22,134 bases of DNA from a virus. Its lineage: Duplodnaviria; Heunggongvirae; Uroviricota; Caudoviricetes. Where the stretch lies: the IMG/VR virus record IMGVR_UViG_2529292905_000029. One strand, 5' to 3'. The translations under genes and the position numbers were made by a program. The notes below the pieces were generated by a model that was given only the letters and a program-made list of their open reading frames with translations, was not told the DNA's origin and ran no database searches. Position 1 is the first letter of the stretch. Each line of letters opens with the position of its first letter. Positions 1-10,618 of this stretch are shown piece after piece.

Positions 1-1011
1 TTATAACGTCACTCCGCCTTTTAGTGGATTCAGAGCGACGGCATTTTGCAGATAGTCAGGCGCAAGGTGCGCATAGGCCATCGTCTGCTGAATGCTCGCA
101 TGTCCCAGAATCTGTTGCAGTGCGATTATATTGCCCCCATTCATCATGAAATGGCTTGCGAATGTATGCCGCAGGATGTGGGTTGCCTGATTGGGTGGTA
201 TATCAGGTTTCACTCTGCGTAAAATCCCGCAAAATTTCTCATAATCAACTTTGAATAATTTGGCGCTGGCCTCCTCTTTAACTTTTTTCTCCAGTTCCTC
301 AGAAATCGGCACGGCTCGCTTTTTACCGTTTTTGGTTTTCAGGAAGGTAACCCTGCAATTTGTAATCTGTGCTGGTTTTAGCGTGGCAACTTCCGTCCAT
401 CTTCCTCCGGTGCTCAGACATAAAAGCGCGACAAGTAAGTCATCACCAGCCAAAACATTTAACAGTTTTTCGATTTCTGCTTTTTCCAGGAACGTCATTT
501 CAGGGTTGGCCTCCGCCAGTGGCGGCAGTCCGTGAATTGGGTGTTGCCCGGAAAATTCATCCAATTGAATTAATTTTGTGAACATGCCGGATAATCGGTA
601 CATGTCACGGTTTATCGTTGCGGCACTGATACCATCACGTAGTCGCATGGAACGATAATCCATCAAAGCCCTTTTGCTCATCCTGCTCACTGGTATATCA
701 CCTATGCCGCTGATGGTTTTGAGTAGATGATTAAACTCTTTTGTTCCATGCTCGTGGTTTTGCCCGTGATATTTCCACCAGATGTCCAGCAACTCACTCA
801 AAGTCCGGCGGTCTGCTCGCTGGCCTCCCCATTCTTTCTGACTGGCATTGGCGATTGTGTATCGCTCAAATGCTAGTGCTTCAGCTTTTCTTTCGAATTT
901 CCTGCGGATGCGTTTTCCGTCGCGACCGCGAGGTCTAATGTCCACTTCATAGCGACCATCATCGAGCTTCTTAATTGCCATAAGAAAGCCCTCCGGCGCT
1001 GTATTCACCAT
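1..1011 (-). CDS. int: Phage integrase, tyrosine recombinase (P2 Int-like), 336 aa
   Basis: Complete minus-strand ORF whose stop codon is window bases 1-3. C-terminal region has tyrosine-recombinase-like HxLRHT (HILRHTFASH) and a conserved Tyr region (MAYAHLAP). Sits beside the repressor gene at the prophage end, as in P2. Confidence 0.9.
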   Translation of the reverse strand: MVNTAPEGFLMAIKKLDDGRYEVDIRPRGRDGKRIRRKFERKAEALAFERYTIANASQKEWGGQRADRRTLSELLDIWWKYHGQNHEHGTKEFNHLLKTISGIGDIPVSRMSKRALMDYRSMRLRDGISAATINRDMYRLSGMFTKLIQLDEFSGQHPIHGLPPLAEANPEMTFLEKAEIEKLLNVLAGDDLLVALLCLSTGGRWTEVATLKPAQITNCRVTFLKTKNGKKRAVPISEELEKKVKEEASAKLFKVDYEKFCGILRRVKPDIPPNQATHILRHTFASHFMMNGGNIIALQQILGHASIQQTMAYAHLAPDYLQNAVALNPLKGGVTL

Positions 1012-1050: not shown

Positions 1051-1344
1051 TTAGCCAATCCTTTTCGCGGAGTGGTTGGACTCTGTTGACTCTGGCCCAA
1101 TGTGCGCGAGAGCCGGTGCGATTTGTCCTGCGTCCGGCGCGGTTTTATCTGTCATAAGCCATAGAGCATATTTTTGGAATGTGGGATGCATAGTGATTTT
1201 TAGCAAAGCTGTGCCACCGGGTTCAAAGTTTCCTCCTTCATATTTTTTAAGTGTGCTTAGCGGTAACTCTATGATTTCACAGAATTTTGATTGGCTTAGC
1301 CCTTCAGCCTCACGCAAGGCCTTAATCTTTTCGCTTAATTTCAT
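1051..1344 (-). CDS. C: Immunity repressor, P2 C-like, 97 aa
   Basis: Small minus-strand ORF between int and the divergently transcribed cox-like gene. N-terminal HTH-like segment (EKIKALREAEGLSQSKFCEI) and a C-terminal QIAPALAH segment resembling P2-family C repressors. Size close to P2 C (99 aa). Confidence 0.8.
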   Translation of the reverse strand: MKLSEKIKALREAEGLSQSKFCEIIELPLSTLKKYEGGNFEPGGTALLKITMHPTFQKYALWLMTDKTAPDAGQIAPALAHIGPESTESNHSAKRIG

Positions 1345-1465: not shown

Positions 1466-1753
1466 ATGAGGGTACCATATATGGACGCTGAAAATTATGT
1501 GATTCAGTATCCGCTTGATGCGGTTCATGTGGATAAATTTGCTGATTTATTAGGGAAGCCAAAGACAGCCGTCAGTGAAATGGTGAAGGCAAATAAATTA
1601 CCAATTATTGAATTGCGTGATCCTTGCAAACCGAAGGCTCGTGCCGGTGAAAAATGGGTTTTCATTCCTGAGTTTAATCGCGCTGTACGTGAGGCGTTTT
1701 ATAACCGACCGGTTGAACAGCGTGATGCATGGCTTTTGTGGATGGGGTTGTGA
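1466..1753 (+). CDS. cox: Cox-like excisionase / early regulator, ~90-95 aa (start may be Met at 1481)
   Basis: First gene of the rightward early operon. Size close to P2 Cox (91 aa). C-terminal ...RDAWLLWMGL resembles the P2 Cox C-terminus as I recall it. Confidence 0.75.
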   Translation: MRVPYMDAENYVIQYPLDAVHVDKFADLLGKPKTAVSEMVKANKLPIIELRDPCKPKARAGEKWVFIPEFNRAVREAFYNRPVEQRDAWLLWMGL

Positions 1754-3237: not shown

Positions 3238-3509
3238 GTATTCGTATTGAAATTGGCGAACGTTATGTCGTTACCAGTGACAGCTTTCAGTTTATTCTCC
3301 ACGAGAAAAAGAGAGCGGAAAGCGGTAAAAACGCCGGTCAGGAATGGCTGGCGGTGGTTGGTTATTACCCGAAATTAGGCCAGCTCGTTTCCGGCCTGAT
3401 GCATCACGATATTCTGACCGGAAGCGCAAAATCTTTTGCTGATTTAAACGCGCAGGTTGAGCAACTCAGCAAGCGTTGTTCAGAGGCTTTTGGCTCATAT
3501 GGCCGTTAA
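3234..3509 (+). CDS. Hypothetical early protein, 91 aa
   Basis: ORF with overlapping start (ATGA at 3234-3237). Its stop (3507-3509) overlaps the ATG of gene A at 3499. Confidence 0.5.
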   Translation: MSIRIEIGERYVVTSDSFQFILHEKKRAESGKNAGQEWLAVVGYYPKLGQLVSGLMHHDILTGSAKSFADLNAQVEQLSKRCSEAFGSYGR

Positions 3510-5784
3510 AGCCTCCGGGCGTTTTGTCCCTCCGTCAGCATTTACCGCAGGCACCGGTAAGGCGTTTACCGGTGCTTATGCATGGAACGCGCCACGCGAG
3601 GCTGTCGGGCGCGAAAGACCTCTTACACGTGACGAGATGCGTCAGGTGCAAGGTGTTTTATCCACGATTAACCGCCTGCCTTACTTTTTGCGCTCGCTGT
3701 TTACTTCACGCTATGACTACATCCGGCGCAATAAAAGCCCGGTGCACGGGTTTTATTTCCTCACATCTACTTTTCAGCGTCGTTTATGGCCGCGCATTGA
3801 GCGTGTGAATCAGCGCCATGAAATGAACACCGACGCGTCGTTGCTGTTTCTGGCAGAGCGTGACCACTATGCGCGCCTGCCGGGAATGAATGACAAGGAG
3901 CTGAAAAAGTTTGCCGCCCGTATCTCATCGCAGCTTTTCATGATGTATGAGGAACTCTGCGATGCATGGGTTGATGCGCATGGTGAAAAAGAATCGCTGT
4001 TTACGGATGAGGCGCAGGCTCACCTCTATGGTCATGTTGCTGGCGCTGCACGTGCTTTCAATATTTCCCCGCTCTACTGGAAAAAATACCGTAAAGGACA
4101 GATGACCACGAGGCAGGCATATTCTGCCATTGCCCGCCTGTTTAACGATGAGTGGTGGACTCATCAGCTTAAAGGCCAGCGTATGCGCTGGCATGAGGCG
4201 TTACTGATAGCTGTCGGGGAGGTCAATAAAGACCGTTCTCCTTATGCCAGTAAACACGCCATTCGTGATGTGCGTGCGCGCCGCCAGGCAAATCTGGAAT
4301 TTCTTAAATCGTGTGACCTTGAAAACAGGGAAACCGGCGAGCGCATCGACCTTATCAGTAAGGTGATGGGCAGTATTTCTAATCCTGAAATTCGCCGGAT
4401 GGAGCTGATGAACACCATTGCCGGTATTGAGCGTTACGCCGCCGCAGAGGGTGATGTGGGGATGTTTATCACGCTGACCGCGCCGTCAAAGTATCACCCG
4501 ACACGTCAGGTCGGAAAAGGCGAAAGTAAAACCGTTCAGCTTAATCACGGCTGGAACGATGAGGCATTTAATCCAAAGGATGCGCAGCGTTATCTCTGCC
4601 GTATCTGGAGCCTGATGCGCACGGCATTCAAGGATAATGATTTACAGGTCTACGGTTTGCGAGTCGTCGAGCCACACCACGACGGAACGCCGCACTGGCA
4701 TATGATGCTTTTTTGTCATCCACGCCAGCGTAACCAGATTATCGAAATCATGCGTCGCTATGCGCTCAAAGAGGATGGCGACGAAAGAGGAGCCGCGCGA
4801 AACCGTTTTCAGGCAAAACACCTTAACCGGGGCGGTGCTGCGGGATATATCGCGAAATACATTTCAAAAAACATCGACGGCTATGCACTGGATGGTCAGC
4901 TCGATAACGACACCGGCAGGCCGCTGAAAGACACTGCAGCGGCTGTTACCGCATGGGCGTCAACGTGGCGCATTCCGCAATTTAAAACGGTTGGCCTGCC
5001 GACAATGGGGGCTTACCGTGAACTACGCAAATTGCCTCGCGGCGTCAGCATTGCTGATGAGTTTGACGAGCGCGTCGAGGCTGCACGCGCCGCCGCAGAC
5101 AGTGGTGATTTTGCGCTGTATATCAGCGCGCAGGGCGGGGCAAATGTCCCGCGCGATTGTCAGACTGTCAGGGTCGCCCGTAGTCTGTCGGATGACGTTA
5201 ACGAGTACGAGGAAGAAGTCGAGAGAGTGGTCGGCATTTACGCGCCGCATCTCGGCGCGCGTCATATTCATATCACCAGAACGACGGACTGGCGCATTGT
5301 GCCGAAAGTTCCGGTCGTTGAGCCTTTGACTTTAAAAAGCGGCATCGCCGCGCCTCGGAGTCCTGTCAATAACTGTGGAAAGCTCACCGGTGGTGATACT
5401 TCGTTACCGGCTCCCACACCTTCTGAACACGCCGCAGCAGTGCTTAATCTGGTTGATGACGGTGTTATCGAATGGAATGAGCCGGAGGTCTTGAGGGCGC
5501 TCAGGGGTGCATTAAAACACGACCTGAGAACGCCAAACCGTCAGCAAAGAAACGGAAGCCCGTTAAAACCACATGAAATTGCACCATCGGCCAGACTGAC
5601 CCGGTCTGAACGATTGCAAATCACCCGTATCCGCGTTGACCTTGCTCAGAACGGTATCAGGCCGCAGCGATGGGCACTTGAGGCGCTGGCGCGTGGCGCG
5701 ACCGTAAATTATGACGGGAAAAAATTCACGTATCCGGTCGCTGATGAGTGGCCGGGATTCTCAACAGTAATGGAGTGGACATGA
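3499..5784 (+). CDS. A: Rolling-circle replication initiator endonuclease (P2 gpA), 761 aa
   Basis: Start MAVKASGRFVPP at ATG 3499. HUH-type metal-binding motif (PHWHMMLF) and active-site tyrosine motif (GYIAKYISKN) of rolling-circle initiators. Length equals P2 A (761 aa). Confidence 0.92.
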   Translation: MAVKASGRFVPPSAFTAGTGKAFTGAYAWNAPREAVGRERPLTRDEMRQVQGVLSTINRLPYFLRSLFTSRYDYIRRNKSPVHGFYFLTSTFQRRLWPRIERVNQRHEMNTDASLLFLAERDHYARLPGMNDKELKKFAARISSQLFMMYEELCDAWVDAHGEKESLFTDEAQAHLYGHVAGAARAFNISPLYWKKYRKGQMTTRQAYSAIARLFNDEWWTHQLKGQRMRWHEALLIAVGEVNKDRSPYASKHAIRDVRARRQANLEFLKSCDLENRETGERIDLISKVMGSISNPEIRRMELMNTIAGIERYAAAEGDVGMFITLTAPSKYHPTRQVGKGESKTVQLNHGWNDEAFNPKDAQRYLCRIWSLMRTAFKDNDLQVYGLRVVEPHHDGTPHWHMMLFCHPRQRNQIIEIMRRYALKEDGDERGAARNRFQAKHLNRGGAAGYIAKYISKNIDGYALDGQLDNDTGRPLKDTAAAVTAWASTWRIPQFKTVGLPTMGAYRELRKLPRGVSIADEFDERVEAARAAADSGDFALYISAQGGANVPRDCQTVRVARSLSDDVNEYEEEVERVVGIYAPHLGARHIHITRTTDWRIVPKVPVVEPLTLKSGIAAPRSPVNNCGKLTGGDTSLPAPTPSEHAAAVLNLVDDGVIEWNEPEVLRALRGALKHDLRTPNRQQRNGSPLKPHEIAPSARLTRSERLQITRIRVDLAQNGIRPQRWALEALARGATVNYDGKKFTYPVADEWPGFSTVMEWT

Positions 5785-6236
5785 TGGCAAAAATTCACGA
5801 GGTAAAGCTGCACGCAAAATATTTCGACCTTGTGCTGGAAGGAAAGAAACGCGCAGAGTTTCGGAAAAATGACCGTAATTATGAGCGCGGGGACACGTTG
5901 ATTTTGCATGAATGGGCGCAGGGTGTGTATACGGGGAGAAAGGTTGAAGCCAGGATAACAGATGTTACTGACCTGTCAGACTGGCTGGAAGACTATGTCT
6001 TGCTAAGTATTGAGCTGCTTAATACAGGCGCATATGAGATTGTGAACTGGAAAGAACTTAGTGAGCGTGGCCTGGTATTCAGAATTAATCATGAAATTAT
6101 GCATCAGCTCGGCCTTGCTGTTATGTATGAACCAGAGACGGGGATGTCTGGCGGGGCAATGGTCGCCACGGATGGAGCATGGAACTATTCAGATGAACAG
6201 ATGGAGCGTGCACAGCAAAACGGGTGGCTTGGATAA
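5784..6236 (+). CDS. ASCH/DUF3850-like (PUA-fold) protein with C-terminal extension, 150 aa
   Basis: ATG at 5784 overlaps the TGA of A (ATGATG at 5781-5786). N-terminal ~90 aa (MAKIHEVKLHAKYFDLVLEGKKRAEFRKNDRNYERGDTLILHEW...) resembles the ASCH-like DUF3850 fold. P2 has a 91-aa ORF at this position, so the ~60-aa C-terminal extension is unusual. Confidence 0.6.
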   Translation: MAKIHEVKLHAKYFDLVLEGKKRAEFRKNDRNYERGDTLILHEWAQGVYTGRKVEARITDVTDLSDWLEDYVLLSIELLNTGAYEIVNWKELSERGLVFRINHEIMHQLGLAVMYEPETGMSGGAMVATDGAWNYSDEQMERAQQNGWLG

Positions 6237-6442
6237 TGCACAGAATACCAGGCGAGATACCGCACCATAAAACTAAAAATATCAAGCTGATGGCTATTGT
6301 TCAGCGTTTACAGCGGATTATGGTCAACGAAAATCTGACGCCCGATGAGCTGGTCGGGTGTGCCGAAATAGTCCGGGATAATTACGGGCGGCTTAACTAT
6401 ATCGGTCAGTCCAGAGTTGCGCCACCACCACGCAGACGATAG
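6224..6442 (+). CDS. Small hypothetical ORF, 51-72 aa (possible start at 6290)
   Basis: ORF track only. Convergent with the minus-strand cassette. No motif, weak support. Confidence 0.3.
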   Translation: MAWIMHRIPGEIPHHKTKNIKLMAIVQRLQRIMVNENLTPDELVGCAEIVRDNYGRLNYIGQSRVAPPPRRR

Positions 6443-6514
6443 AGAACGCCGCCAGTCGTGAAACTTGTTTTCAGGGCTGGCGGGGTTGAACAATGAGCGT
6501 AGCGAGGCGTTAGC

Positions 6515-6754
6515 CTATTTATTAAAAAATTCTAGAAGTGTAATTCCATTGGCTCCAAGGCTTACAAAGCCTTCAATACTATTAATTGATGTGATTGTCT
6601 TTTTCAGAATGTTCTTTAGCTTTGAGCCTTCTTCGGTCGTAGTTATTACTTCGTTAAATTGCTCAGACATACAAGCATGCCCCATTGTGGCTTCTGTTGC
6701 TGAAATTATTGGCTCAATACCAGTTATTTCATAGTCGTCAAAAGCTCTAATCAT
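6515..6754 (-). CDS. Hypothetical small acidic protein, 79 aa (second gene of accessory cassette)
   Basis: Minus-strand ORF in AT-rich DNA. Its ATG (6754-6752) overlaps the TGA (6753-6751) of the upstream 165-aa ORF. Rich in D/E. No recognisable domain. Confidence 0.5.
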   Translation of the reverse strand: MIRAFDDYEITGIEPIISATEATMGHACMSEQFNEVITTTEEGSKLKNILKKTITSINSIEGFVSLGANGITLLEFFNK

Positions 6755-7248
6755 GTTGTCAATGTAATATAATATTTCTTTTTTAGGTTAATTGGGAAGT
6801 CAGAATTAATTATGGATTCCTTCAGTTCTAATAATTGCCCCTTTATTTCAATTAACTGTTCATCTTTAAGTTTTCCAATCTGACCTTTGGTCTTGAATAG
6901 GACTGATATCATCCCTAATTCATTTATGGCATTATCAGAGATTCTTTGGAGGGAATGGGACAGAGATTCTCCCAGATTTAAGTTTTCGAAAAAATCATTA
7001 ACACTGGGCCTCCAGTGTGGGGCTGTGATTTCATCTTCTGGAAAGTAGTCTTTTAATGTGTTATCTATTTTTTTAGGCAAGCTCATGATTTTGGAAATCT
7101 TATCCCATAAGATGGTTTTATTATCTTCAGAACCCTCTAATTCAAACATTTGTAATAAAGCACGCTTTACCGTAATGTTATATGGTTGTTGTGCTTTTAG
7201 CTTGGTGAAAAACTCTCGTAAGGTCAGTGCTGAATTGTCGATGTACAT
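6751..7248 (-). CDS. Hypothetical protein, 165 aa (first gene of accessory cassette)
   Basis: Minus-strand ORF in the AT-rich block, with AGG about 9 nt upstream of the ATG at 7248 and a promoter-like sequence upstream. C-terminal region looks coiled-coil-like (KLKDEQLIEIKGQLLELKESI). No catalytic motif recognised. Confidence 0.55.
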   Translation of the reverse strand: MYIDNSALTLREFFTKLKAQQPYNITVKRALLQMFELEGSEDNKTILWDKISKIMSLPKKIDNTLKDYFPEDEITAPHWRPSVNDFFENLNLGESLSHSLQRISDNAINELGMISVLFKTKGQIGKLKDEQLIEIKGQLLELKESIINSDFPINLKKKYYITLTT

Positions 7249-7290
7249 GGAAAAACCTAACAGTCAAATTATTAATAATAGAACAACAAG

Positions 7291-7319
7291 ATACTAATAA
7301 AATCTAACGTTAGTATCAA
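7291..7319 (-). promoter_or_regulatory. Candidate sigma70 promoter for the accessory cassette (TTGATA-N17-TAGTAT on minus strand)
   Basis: Reverse complement of 7314-7319 is TTGATA and of 7291-7296 is TAGTAT, separated by 17 bp. The spacer contains the perfect palindrome CTAACGTTAG (7304-7313). About 40 nt upstream of the ATG at 7248. Confidence 0.45.
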
Positions 7320-7450
7320 TAACGAATATATGCGCACACTGCATGAAAATGCATTTTCTTTTAAGGGGGCGATATATCGAGTCGAGTCATGGTTGATGCG
7401 ACATTAGTGTGCTGGTGCAACTGCATTCAAACAGACCCATGAAGCGGGCG

Positions 7451-7469
7451 GGCGAGGCGGGGAAAGCAC
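7451..7469. other. cos site: 19-nt cohesive-end sequence GGCGAGGCGGGGAAAGCAC
   Basis: Exact 19-mer that I recall as the P2 cohesive end, found at the expected map position between the accessory slot and the 3' end of Q. A G/T-rich tract follows at about 7540-7610. Confidence 0.7.
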
Positions 7470-7610
7470 TGCGCGCTGGCGGTGGTGCTGATTTTATTTT
7501 TTCAGCGTCTCAGCGCGTCGTGACGGCGCTTAGTCTGCCCGTTGAGGCGTTGGTGTGTCTGCGGGGTGTTTTGTGCGGTGGTGAGCGTGTGAGGGGGTGA
7601 TGACGGGGTG

Positions 7611-7633
7611 TAAAAAAGCCGCCCGCAGGCGGC
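7611..7633 (-). terminator. Rho-independent terminator downstream of Q
   Basis: On the minus strand: GCCGCC-TGCG-GGCGGC stem-loop followed by TTTTTTA, starting about 5 nt after the Q stop codon. Confidence 0.6.
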
Positions 7634-7638
7634 GATGT

Positions 7639-8673
7639 TCAGTCGTTGTCAGTGTCCAGTGAGTAGTTTTTAAAGCGGATGACCTCCTGACCGAGCCAGC
7701 CGTTTATCTCGCGGATCCTGTCCTGTAACGGGATAAGCTCATTGCGGACAAAGACCTTTGCCACTTTCTCAATATCTCCCAGTGACCCGACGTTCTCCGG
7801 CTTGCCGCCCATCAACTGAAAGGGGATGCGGTGTGCGTCCAGCAGGTCAGCGGCGCTGGCTTTTTTGATATTAAAAAAATCGTCCTTCGTTGCCACTTCA
7901 CTGAGCGGGATAATTTTAATGCCGTCAGCTTTCCCCTGCGGGGCATAGAGAAACAGGTTTTTAAAGTTGTTGCGACCTTTCGACTTAACCATGTTTTCGC
8001 GGAGCATTTCGATATCGTTGCGATCCTGCACGGCATCGGTGACGTACATGATGTATCCGGCATGTGCGCCATTTTCGTAATACTTGCGGCGGAACAACGT
8101 GGCCGACTCATTCAGCCAGGCAGAGTTAAGGGCGCTGAGATATTCCGGCAGGCCGTACAGCTCCTGATTAATATCCGGCTCCAGCAGGTGAAACACGGAG
8201 CCGGGCGCGAAAGGTGTCGGCTCGTTGAAGGACGGCACCCACCAGTAAACATCCTCCTCCACGCCACGGCGGGTATATTTTGCCGGTGAGGTTTCCAGTC
8301 TGATGATCTTACCGGTGGTGCTGTAACGCTTTTCCAGAAACGCATTACCGAACACCAGAAAATCCAGCACAAAGCGGCTGAAATCCTGTTGTGAAAGCCA
8401 CGGATGCGGGATAAATGTCGAGGCCAGAATATTACGTTTGACGTAAATCGGTGAGCTGTGATGCACGGCAGCACGCAGACTTTTTGCCAGACCGGTAAAG
8501 CTGACCGGCGGCTCATACCATCTGCCGTTACTGATGCATTCGACGTAATCCAGAATGTCACGGCGGTCGAGTACCGGCACCGGCTCGCCAAAGGTGAATG
8601 CCTCCATTTTCGGGGCGCTGGCGGTCATTGTTTTTGCCGCAGGTTGCGGTGTTTTCCCTTTTTTCTTGCTCAT
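7639..8673 (-). CDS. Q: Portal protein (P2 gpQ), 344 aa
   Basis: Minus-strand ORF of 344 aa, the same length as P2 Q. Adjacent to and overlapping the terminase large-subunit gene; immediately inside cos, as in P2. Confidence 0.9.
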   Translation of the reverse strand: MSKKKGKTPQPAAKTMTASAPKMEAFTFGEPVPVLDRRDILDYVECISNGRWYEPPVSFTGLAKSLRAAVHHSSPIYVKRNILASTFIPHPWLSQQDFSRFVLDFLVFGNAFLEKRYSTTGKIIRLETSPAKYTRRGVEEDVYWWVPSFNEPTPFAPGSVFHLLEPDINQELYGLPEYLSALNSAWLNESATLFRRKYYENGAHAGYIMYVTDAVQDRNDIEMLRENMVKSKGRNNFKNLFLYAPQGKADGIKIIPLSEVATKDDFFNIKKASAADLLDAHRIPFQLMGGKPENVGSLGDIEKVAKVFVRNELIPLQDRIREINGWLGQEVIRFKNYSLDTDND

Positions 8674-10445
8674 CAGTAAAACTCCAGAATGGTGGATGTC
8701 AGCGGGGTGCTGATACCGGCGGTGAGTGGCTCATTTAACAGGGCGTGCATGGTCGCCCAGGCGAGGTCGGCGTGGCTGGCTTCCTCGCTGCGGCTGGCCT
8801 CATAGGTGGCGCTGCGTCCGCTGCTGGTCATGGTCTTGCGGATAGCCATAAACGAGCTGGTGATGTCGGTGGCGCTGACGTCATATTCCAGACAGCCACG
8901 ACGGATAACGTCTTTTGCCTTGAGCACCATTGCGGTTTTCATTTCCGGTGTGTAGCGGATATCGCGCGCGGCGGGATAGAACGAGCGCACGAGCTGGAAC
9001 ACGCCGACACCGAGGCCGGTGGCATCAATACCGATGTATTCGACGTTGTATTTTTCGGTGAGTTTGCGGATGGATTCAGCCTGAGTGGCAAAGTCCATGC
9101 CTTTCCACTGGTGACGCTCAAGTATCCTGAATTTGCCACCGGCCACCACCGGCGGTGCCAGCACCACGCATCCGGCGCTGTCGCCACGGTGTGACGGGTC
9201 GTAACCAATCCATACCGGGCGGGAGCCGAACGGATTGGCGGCAAAGGGTGCATAGTCTTCCCATTCTTCCAGCGTGTCGATCATGCAGCGTTGCAGCTCC
9301 TCGAACGGGAACACCGATGCCTTGTCGTCAACAAATTCACACATGAACAGGTTTTTAAAATCGTCGGCGCTGTTTTCGCGTTTGAGCTGCTCAATGTCGA
9401 ACAGCGTGCAGCCACCTTTCAGGGCGTCCTCAATGGTGACAATCTGCCGCCACTGGCCGTCTGCACAGAGAAGCCCATCGGCAAGGGCGTTATGACTGAC
9501 GTCGATTTCCACGCGTTCGGCGGCGCTGGCGCGTCCCCGGTTGAACAGTTCACCCGACCAGAACGGGTAGGCGTCGTGCGCCAGCGTGGACGGGGTGGAG
9601 AAATAGGTCGAGCGCAGGTGACTCTGTGAGGCCATACCTGATGCCACCTTACGCAGTACCTGAAAATTCGGTATCCAGAAAATCTCGTCGACGTACAGGT
9701 CGCCGTTATGGCTCTGCGCGGTGTTGGAGTTGGTGCCGAGAAAAATCAGTTTTGCGCCGTTATTGCCCAGGACAATCGGGTCACCGGTCAGGTCAACGTC
9801 AACCAGCCGGGCAAAGGCGATGATGTATTCGCGGAACACATACGCCTGCGTTTTACTGGCCGACAGAAAAATCTGGTTATGACCGGTTTTCAGGGCGCGC
9901 AGCAGCGCCTCGCGGGAAAAATAAAACGTCGCGCCAATCTGGCGGGATTTCAGGATATCGCGGATGCGGTGCTCAAGCCCGGCGCGATACCAGTGCAACT
10001 GATAGTCGAAAGACTGCTCAAAGAAAATCTGCTCCAGCTTTTCGATAGCCTCGTCACTGAAAAAATTCTTTTTCGGTTTGCGACGCCCGCCTTTGTTGCG
10101 GTTAGCGACGTTCGGATTAAGGTCTGCCTCGTTGCCGGTCTGGCTGTAACGGTTGACCCGTGCCAGCCGTTCAATCTGGCGTCCGAGCAGGTCAATTTCC
10201 TTGAAGTCACCGCCGGTTTTCTGCGGTTTGATGATGAGCTGGGTCAGCCGCGCTTCCAGACTCATTTCGACACGGCTGATGGGGGCAACGCTGTCCCAGC
10301 CGTCGCGCTGTTTCCAGCTCTGCACCGTCGGGCGTTTCATCTGCAACATGGCGGCAATCTGCGGCACGGAAAACCCCTGCCAGTACAGCAGCGCCGCCTG
10401 ACGACGCGGGTCGTGTAAAAGAGTGGTGTCTGTGGTGATGGTCAT
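8673..10445 (-). CDS. P: Terminase large (ATPase) subunit (P2 gpP), 590 aa
   Basis: Minus-strand ORF. Start taken at MTITTD (ATG 10445) with GAGG upstream, giving 590 aa as in P2 P. The ORF track's longer 600-aa version begins 30 nt upstream. Divergent from the O-N-M-L operon, as in P2. Confidence 0.9.
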   Translation of the reverse strand: MTITTDTTLLHDPRRQAALLYWQGFSVPQIAAMLQMKRPTVQSWKQRDGWDSVAPISRVEMSLEARLTQLIIKPQKTGGDFKEIDLLGRQIERLARVNRYSQTGNEADLNPNVANRNKGGRRKPKKNFFSDEAIEKLEQIFFEQSFDYQLHWYRAGLEHRIRDILKSRQIGATFYFSREALLRALKTGHNQIFLSASKTQAYVFREYIIAFARLVDVDLTGDPIVLGNNGAKLIFLGTNSNTAQSHNGDLYVDEIFWIPNFQVLRKVASGMASQSHLRSTYFSTPSTLAHDAYPFWSGELFNRGRASAAERVEIDVSHNALADGLLCADGQWRQIVTIEDALKGGCTLFDIEQLKRENSADDFKNLFMCEFVDDKASVFPFEELQRCMIDTLEEWEDYAPFAANPFGSRPVWIGYDPSHRGDSAGCVVLAPPVVAGGKFRILERHQWKGMDFATQAESIRKLTEKYNVEYIGIDATGLGVGVFQLVRSFYPAARDIRYTPEMKTAMVLKAKDVIRRGCLEYDVSATDITSSFMAIRKTMTSSGRSATYEASRSEEASHADLAWATMHALLNEPLTAGISTPLTSTILEFY

Positions 10446-10618
10446 GAATACCTCGCCGTGATGAATACACGGCAAGGCTACTGAGTCGCGCCCCGCGATT
10501 CGCTAAGGTGCTGTTGTGTCAGTGATAAGCCATCCGGGACTGATGGCGGAGGATGCGCATCGTCGGGAAACTGATGCCGACATGTGACTCCTCTAATCAC
10601 TATTCAGGACTCCTGACA
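10446..10618. promoter_or_regulatory. Divergent late-promoter region between P and O
   Basis: 173-bp intergenic region between divergently transcribed P and O. In P2 this interval holds the Ogr-dependent late promoters. Contains the inverted repeat GCCGTG-N7-CACGGC (10455-10473) and an imperfect TGT-N12-CAC element (10583-10600). Confidence 0.45.

Follow-up and report, generated by a model that had tools for sequence, protein, structure and literature searches.

The lambdoid-phage literature describes morons, autonomous units of promoter, gene and terminator that are carried in prophages. In P2-like phages, the gpA-gpQ interval beside the cos site is a published hotspot of anti-phage cargo (PMC9122126; PMC13586616), and hotspot systems function from their native promoters (Rousset et al. 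2022, PMC9122126). In P2 lysogens, old is expressed constitutively (PMC12445682). The P2 record (NC_001895) annotates the starts of the old-tin mRNA at 33424/33426 on the minus strand, ~150 nt inside cosR. These starts lie 6-8 nt past the -10 hexamer of TTGAAT-N17-TAAAAA, a promoter that stands directly after an array of ATGCA repeats, ~133 nt from cosR.

We analysed a stretch of 22,134 nt (IMG/VR record IMGVR_UViG_2529292905_000029), here called the window in its whole length, which is a P2-type (Peduovirus) prophage. The features around its hotspot and along its backbone are as follows.

1-1011, minus strand: integrase
1051-1344, minus strand: C-type repressor
1466-1753, plus strand: Cox-type ORF
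3457-5784, plus strand: gpA
5748-6236, plus strand: ASCH/DUF3850 protein
6224-6442, plus strand: small ORF
6481-6513, minus strand: conserved element CTAACGCCTCGC...TTGTTCAACCCCG of the left junction, which bounds the cargo on this side
6515-7248, minus strand: one cargo gene (phrog_15904; 244 aa in its intact form), made up of a 165-aa ORF (6751-7248) and a 79-aa ORF (6515-6754)
7354-7350, 7344-7340 and 7334-7330, minus strand: ATGCA array, with the degenerate third repeat GCGCA at 7334-7330; the right border of the cargo
7451-7469, minus strand: cos cohesive end GTGCTTTCCCCGCCTCGCC, the same sequence as the 19-nt cosR of NC_001895
7618-7633, minus strand: strong intrinsic terminator past portal gene Q, GCCGCCTGCGGGCGGC followed by TTTTTT
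7639-8673, minus strand: portal gpQ
8673-10475, minus strand: terminase gpP

The cargo lies between gpA and gpQ and adjoins cos, with conserved backbone on both sides. It shares with the described gpA-gpQ hotspot cargo (PMC9122126; PMC13586616) the place beside cos, the low GC content, the sharp borders and a site that is occupied by different cargo in other phages; a low-GC island spans ~6500-7400 (30-37% GC vs 50-60% in the flanks). The strong terminator past gpQ blocks P-Q read-through, so the cargo gene needs a promoter of its own. Within the hotspot, the -35 hexamer of a candidate promoter is found ~150 nt inside cos. The window backbone was matched by 74 P2-type phage records, only from ~7416 towards gpQ, and since these matches begin only there, the promoter lies inside the variable cargo. 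Yersinia phage GMS190 alone among the 74 matching records has the same cargo. At locus L102 the hotspot is almost empty, with the left-junction element only ~40 nt past the ATGCA array, which sets the limits of the cargo at ~6514 and ~7330. These limits and the position of the array indicate that the promoter is the first feature of a module at a fixed insertion point, as in P2.

The array itself was followed across the cos flanks of related elements. A further 120 cohesive-end loci were fetched and, together with the loci in hand, were reduced to 79 distinct flank clusters. Results showed that ATGCA stood at about +40 from cos in 79/79 clusters and at +110 to +140 in 78/79, with at least two copies in 69 clusters (background 0.067 per 55 nt). 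The array is therefore common to P2-type and P4-type elements. A literature search on ATGCA repeats in cos flanks, run without Ziermann and Calendar (1990), found no description of them. We consider this array more intriguing than the promoter finding. In P2, three ATGCA repeats are ~11 nt apart and the third overlaps the -35 hexamer, whereas in the window the -35 hexamer begins 10 nt beyond the degenerate third repeat.

A sequence-only reading of the window had placed a minus-strand promoter, TTGATA-N17-TAGTAT, about 40 nt upstream of the 165-aa ORF, with a perfect 10-bp palindrome inside the spacer. Both observations were confirmed. The elements of this promoter and its leader are listed below.

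7319-7314, minus strand: -35 hexamer TTGATA (sequence reading and promoter scan)
7313-7297, minus strand: 17-nt spacer CTAACGTTAGATTTTAT (sequence reading)
7304-7313, within the spacer: perfect 10-bp palindrome CTAACGTTAG (sequence reading)
7296-7291, minus strand: -10 hexamer TAGTAT (sequence reading and promoter scan)
7282-7286 (~7284), minus strand: predicted transcription start, from hexamer geometry, ~5-9 nt past the -10
7261-7281, minus strand: lineage-specific 21-nt leader insertion between the -10 and the ribosome-binding site (MAFFT alignment)
7256-7258, minus strand: Shine-Dalgarno-like AGG, 8-10 nt before the ATG (AGGG or AGGA in orthologues)

The ATG of the 165-aa ORF is at 7248, and the distance from the -10 hexamer to the ATG is 42 nt. 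The promoter scan chose the same site, which agrees with the consensus at 9/12 positions and has both A2 and T6 of the -10, so that the hexamers are decent rather than near-consensus as first described. The exact TTGATA-N17-TAGTAT pattern occurs only once in the window. Sites of 9/12 quality are as frequent as chance predicts (7 observed in 5700-7700 vs 4.2 +/- 1.8 in shuffles), and a 9/12 match alone is not significant in the AT-rich DNA here. This frequency would suit a chance consensus match, with the gene transcribed from elsewhere or not at all, and so would the frameshift that the gene carries in this genome.

Comparison with orthologous loci speaks to this question. The loci, with 52-99% protein identity, came from viral contigs, genomes and assemblies of Enterobacter, Klebsiella, Scandinavium and metagenomes, and all of those collected directly adjoin a P2-type cos site. 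When the comparison was anchored on the -35 hexamer, eight loci of seven lineages read as follows.

Window: -35 TTGATA, spacer 17 nt, -10 TAGTAT
L008 and L138: -35 TTGACC, spacer 17 nt, -10 TAGCAT
L146: -35 TTGACC, spacer 17 nt, -10 TAAAAT
L002: -35 TTGATC, spacer 17 nt, -10 TAATAT
L140: -35 TTGCTC, spacer 17 nt, -10 TAAAAT
L006: -35 TTGAAC, spacer 17 nt, -10 TAGGGT
L003: -35 TTAGAC, spacer 17 nt, -10 TAATGG

The spacer length was 17 nt in 8/8 loci, giving the family pattern TTGAyn-N17-TAnnAT with a -35 consensus of TTGAyC. Mean pairwise identity was 0.67 in the hexamers vs 0.41 in the spacer, and the invariant columns in a MAFFT alignment of six lineages were ATTG at the -35 and TA..AT at the -10. 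Hexamers and spacing are thus kept while the spacer drifts, as would be expected if a functional sigma-70 promoter stood here. Two further lineages (L007/L141 and L009/L010) showed no convincing promoter at the homologous place. Besides the conservation of hexamers and spacing in seven lineages, a chance match has against it the terminator upstream, the P2 precedent at the same position, and the finding that the minus strand between the ATGCA array and the ATG holds no other candidate except a weaker site in the leader insertion. We regard a chance match as very unlikely. A generic promoter scan of the 79 cos flanks, in which orientation calls were noisy, gave overlapping best-match distributions (mostly 7-9/12) for cargo reading away from cos vs towards cos. 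In that scan, the window's own cluster was given the opposite orientation through a spurious antisense ORF (7058-7297).

The leader of the window differs from that of its orthologues, in which the distance from the -10 to the ATG is 21-22 nt vs 42 nt in the window. The palindrome TTATTAATAA (7269-7278) lies within the leader insertion, as does AATAAT, a second hexamer resembling a -10. The insertion creates a weaker alternative promoter, TTAGTA-N18-AATAAT (8/12), which ends 19 nt from the ATG and could be the real start in the window lineage. No known RNA families were found in 6000-7800 (Rfam), and the structure of the leader RNA showed nothing beyond chance (z = +0.95). A promoter of another class was also considered. 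P2 late (Ogr-type) promoters have a consensus dyad, TGT-N12-ACA, near -55, and inspection by eye found no such dyad near -55 here.

The spacer palindrome had been proposed as a site where a bound protein would repress directly. We found that it is accompanied by an 8-bp perfect inverted repeat, GATACTAA (7317-7310) and TTAGTATC (7297-7290), which has 12 nt between its arms, covers both hexamers and had been overlooked in the first reading. Together, the inverted repeat (7290-7317) and the palindrome form three TTAG(T/A)AT half-sites from the -35 to the -10. Such an arrangement could serve as an operator, at which a dimeric protein acting in trans, from the host or the prophage, would block RNA polymerase in the E. 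coli lineage only. In tests that were all picked after the data had been seen, simulation put the chance of a 10-bp palindrome in a 17-nt spacer of the same composition at ~0.014 and that of 8-bp arms in a 42-nt segment of local composition at ~0.007, and the 172-nt leader (7249-7420) held four perfect 10-bp palindromes vs 0.29 expected (P ~0.0006). Across the whole window, perfect 10-bp palindromes were common without being enriched (17 vs 24.8 expected).

Conservation of the dyad was confined to close relatives. The promoter and dyad were identical throughout the E. coli lineage, in 13/13 copies (the window plus 12 fetched loci), and the 12 fetched loci are uninformative on the dyad because they are at least 98% identical overall. 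Complementary pairs in the spacer 10-mer numbered 5/5 in the window lineage only and 0-2/5 in seven other lineages; in L146, the counterpart of the palindrome is CTAATGACCA, which is non-palindromic. The palindrome is thus restricted to the near-identical E. coli/Yersinia-phage lineage, and the spacer of the P2 old-tin promoter, unlike that of the window, has no dyad. Neither the palindrome nor the repeat arms had a second copy elsewhere in the window, and both were absent from the C/Cox immunity switch, whose repeats CCTATATAGG are unrelated, and from 1.29 Mb of other P2/P4 loci. The dyad was therefore neither conserved with the promoter nor repeated at other regulated promoters, and no candidate binding protein was found. 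These results leave an operator acting in trans unlikely, and they do not bear out the repressor site first proposed. The palindrome and the flanking 8-bp repeat are most likely lineage-specific changes without a demonstrated role. As the symmetry is statistically unusual (P ~0.007-0.014; leader P ~0.0006, all post hoc), it may nevertheless have some function.

The two ORFs downstream of the promoter had been taken for a cassette that is expressed autonomously in the lysogen and possibly autoregulated, as toxin-antitoxin operons are. They proved to be the halves of one 244-aa gene. On PHROG 15904 (244 positions), the 165-aa ORF covers positions 1-163 and the 79-aa ORF positions 166-244. Thirteen homologues were 243-245 aa each, and a profile search returned 442 cluster representatives (E <= 0.001), of which nearly all of the best 150 were single ~240-aa proteins. 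Alignment of the window with GMS190 placed a 1-nt gap in the poly-A run, at about 6785.

6778-6784, minus strand: poly-A tract, A6 in the window and A7 in intact alleles

The cargo is thus one gene, split into 165 and 79 aa because of a 1-nt loss in the poly-A run. For E. coli DEC5E, a record of the truncated 165-aa product exists. Many draft E. coli contigs encode the intact protein, in each case in the order portal - cos - gene - small ORF - ASCH - gpA, and among complete RefSeq E. coli genomes a megablast search with the cargo gave no match. The short A6 allele is also present in the independent run ERR14005119, in which nine other positions differ from the window. Two accounts fit its presence there: a real mutation that recurs or was inherited, and a miscall of the homopolymer made more than once. 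The short allele contains an in-frame A_AAA_AAG heptamer, and slippage by -1 on it would bring back the complete 244-aa protein; judged from this motif, the slippery site could still give some full-length protein. No stimulatory structure was found downstream of the heptamer. This slippery-site frameshift, together with the large uncharacterised family of hotspot proteins to which the gene belongs, appears to us more intriguing than the promoter finding.

The protein itself gave few clues. No Pfam, NCBIfam or PADLOC family was above threshold and no named defence system was matched; in this, and in the frameshift of the window copy, the gene differs from the defence cargo described for the gpA-gpQ hotspot. 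An AlphaFold model (pLDDT 80.5) was all-helical and matched generic helical bundles only. Autoregulation would require the product of the downstream ORFs to bind the palindrome in the manner of an antitoxin that controls its own operon. A tri-helical HTH_CHD6-9 match at residues 34-69 was seen in 8/13 family members, and this together with ArsR-type repressors at E ~0.3 could hint at such binding, both being below threshold (best E of the former 0.0099-0.016, at 16 bits vs a cutoff of 27). Profile searches and comparison of the AlphaFold model recognised no DNA-binding domain, and orthologues keep the protein but lack the palindrome. The cargo contains no second gene and no antitoxin-like regulator. 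The only likeness to autoregulated type II toxin-antitoxin operons is the dyad overlapping the core promoter; the locus differs from them in that it has one gene where they have two, its product has no antitoxin domain for DNA binding, and its dyad is missing from orthologues. With a single-gene cargo and no evident DNA-binding product there is no toxin-antitoxin pair, and we consider autoregulation extremely unlikely. What stands of the earlier proposal is autonomous expression: the gene very probably has a real promoter of its own, as indicated by its conservation in orthologues, its old-tin-like position and the upstream terminator, and the cassette is to be replaced by one gene.

A bolder reading joins the leader and the poly-A tract. 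The palindrome-rich leader would then be a lineage-specific regulatory innovation, in which a dimeric factor switches the hotspot gene and the A7/A6 tract tunes its output further. We hold this to be quite unlikely.

The base composition of the cargo (30-37% GC vs a background of 50-60%) brings in another kind of control. The promoter would be real, and the main control would be silencing by H-NS, which would nucleate on the AT-rich cargo and leader and leave the gene mostly off until it is counter-silenced, with the dyads as by-products of flexible, AT-rich DNA. The sequence TCGATATATC (7380-7371) agrees at 9/10 positions with the high-affinity H-NS site of proV, TCGATATATT (PMC2094087), and TCGTTAAATT is found at 6651-6660. 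A 2026 preprint abstract reports that AT-rich immunity loci are silenced by H-NS. Motif matches in the window were not significantly enriched (5 vs 2.1 expected; 7/100 shuffles reached 5), and P2 old, at the same place, is constitutively expressed. Judged from the sequence, H-NS silencing as the main control is possible, if on the unlikely side; it would complement a sigma-70 promoter of the cargo gene and does not exclude it.

The closest counterpart of this probable sigma-70 promoter is that of P2 old-tin. Both occupy the same genome position as the first cargo feature past the ATGCA array, both read away from cos towards gpA, and their elements are alike (TTGAAT-N17-TAAAAA in P2, TTGATA-N17-TAGTAT in the window). 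The P2 promoter drives non-essential accessory genes, and that of the window would likewise serve accessory cargo. The two differ in that their sequences are unalignable beyond the ATGCA array, that the start is mapped in P2 and predicted in the window, and that the P2 cargo consists of the OLD nuclease and Tin, that of the window of a 244-aa helical protein. The module also resembles a moron as a compact unit with its own promoter and deviant base composition, set between functional modules. As a point of difference, the scan of the minus strand picked out no clear intrinsic terminator for the module past the stop at 6515, which directly borders the conserved junction element; an imperfect 19-bp inverted repeat at 6445-6487 lacks a T-run.

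We conclude that the element is probably the sigma-70 promoter of a single hotspot cargo gene, with a start at ~7284, and that its dyad is a lineage-specific feature to which no role has been demonstrated. It would belong to a promoter-plus-gene cargo module at ~6514-7330. Transcription by RNA polymerase would begin at ~7284 on the minus strand and cover one gene, which encodes a 244-aa, all-helical protein and carries a frameshift in this assembly. In position and function the promoter would correspond to that of P2 old-tin, which makes expression in the prophage, independent of the lytic programme, the likely behaviour. From this we infer that the promoter is active and that the gene is expressed in the lysogen.

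A promoter of an accessory gene in the cos-proximal hotspot of P2 is of an already known kind and breaks no new ground. For annotation, the gene very probably has its own promoter as the first element of the cargo module, and the "two-gene cassette" is a single gene, frameshifted in this strain, to which the label of a toxin-antitoxin pair should not be given. For P2 and P4 elements more widely, the hotspot side of cos has a fixed layout, from the cos box to the ATGCA array to the cargo, in which the cargo's own promoter comes first when the cargo reads away from cos. This layout is of use in setting the limits of cargo and in selecting native-promoter fragments when hotspot genes are cloned for defence assays.

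We examined the 172-nt leader of the cargo gene (7249-7420) for perfect 10-bp palindromes and found four, against 0.29 expected. Only the ATGCA-centred one was conserved in other phages. In the list below, "+n" denotes nucleotides from cos, and L011-L131 are the fetched loci with a P2- or P4-type cos.

Leader elements and a neighbouring gene in the window
7269-7278, leader palindrome TTATTAATAA
7304-7313, leader palindrome CTAACGTTAG
7347-7356, leader palindrome AAATGCATTT, within the 14-bp GAAAATGCATTTTC
7370-7379, leader palindrome CGATATATCG
7330-7354, ATGCA array of 2-3 repeats ~10-11 nt apart; at ~+110 to +140 in L011-L131
7261-7281, insertion of 21 nt separating the -10 from the ribosome-binding site
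5748-6236, plus strand, Orf91-equivalent of 162 aa, longer in the window

The ATGCA array was present in 78 of the 79 distinct P2-type and P4-type cos flanks, and its distance from the cohesive end was fixed. The background rate of ATGCA is 0.067 per 55 nt, compared with the array at +110 to +140, and a further, invariant ATGCA was located at ~+40 from cos. The array is probably part of a packaging signal common to P2 and its satellite P4; no earlier description of it at cos was found in the literature searched. By eye, many loci (e.g., L130, L095, and L022) also showed a GC-rich GCGCCAG-N2-5-CTGGCGC-type inverted repeat at ~+55 to +95, in the stretch that separates the array from the conserved cos box. 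In the window lineage, other sequence, CGATATATCG included, was seen by eye in its place.

In some P2-type phages (L102 and L129) the hotspot was almost empty, at ~+145 to +220 from cos. A conserved left-junction element, CTAACGCCTCGC...TTGTTCAACCCCG, lay ~40 nt past the ATGCA array in these near-empty hotspots, and its counterpart in the window is at 6481-6513, so that the borders of the cargo insertion are exact. The 3' end of gpA was overlapped by the start of the Orf91-equivalent, which consists of an ASCH/DUF3850 domain followed by a C-terminal DUF7415.

Within the leader, the 21-nt insertion was restricted to the window lineage and doubled the leader length from ~14 to ~35 nt. Its resemblance to the -10 region (TATTAGTATCTTG versus TATTAATAATTTG) suggests a duplication that has since diverged. 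The published high-affinity H-NS motif had two 9/10 matches, TCGATATATC (7371-7380) and TCGTTAAATT (6651-6660), both inside the low-GC cargo, and the motif count over the whole window showed no significant excess. Elsewhere in the window, in the C/Cox switch region (1350-1405), CCTATATAGG occurred twice, in an inverted repeat whose 16-nt arms (1350-1365 and 1390-1405) were 88% complementary. These repeats, which presumably serve as immunity operators, were unrelated to the dyad at 7290-7317 in the probable cargo promoter.

The frameshift in the cargo gene was traced to a change from A7 to A6 (6778-6784, minus strand), and the A6 allele was also present in an independent sample with 9 other differences. 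The A6 allele reads CTA AAA AAG, which places the heptamer A_AAA_AAG in the zero frame, where its sequence matches a dnaX-type -1 slippery heptamer. The predicted product of a -1 slip at this site is 244 aa long and co-linear with the intact protein; a search for a stimulatory structure downstream of the heptamer found none.

The cargo protein (6515-7248, minus strand) belongs to a large unannotated family of 442 cluster representatives, with no model in Pfam, NCBIfam, or PADLOC. Nearly all of the best 150 of these 442 relatives were ~240 aa long, and the fold is predicted to be all-helical. Megablast searches of all complete RefSeq E. coli genomes with the cargo (6480-7420) as query found 0 matches, whereas many draft E. 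coli contigs carried the intact gene. Because it is located in a known defence hotspot, the cargo protein is a candidate for a single-gene defence or accessory function.
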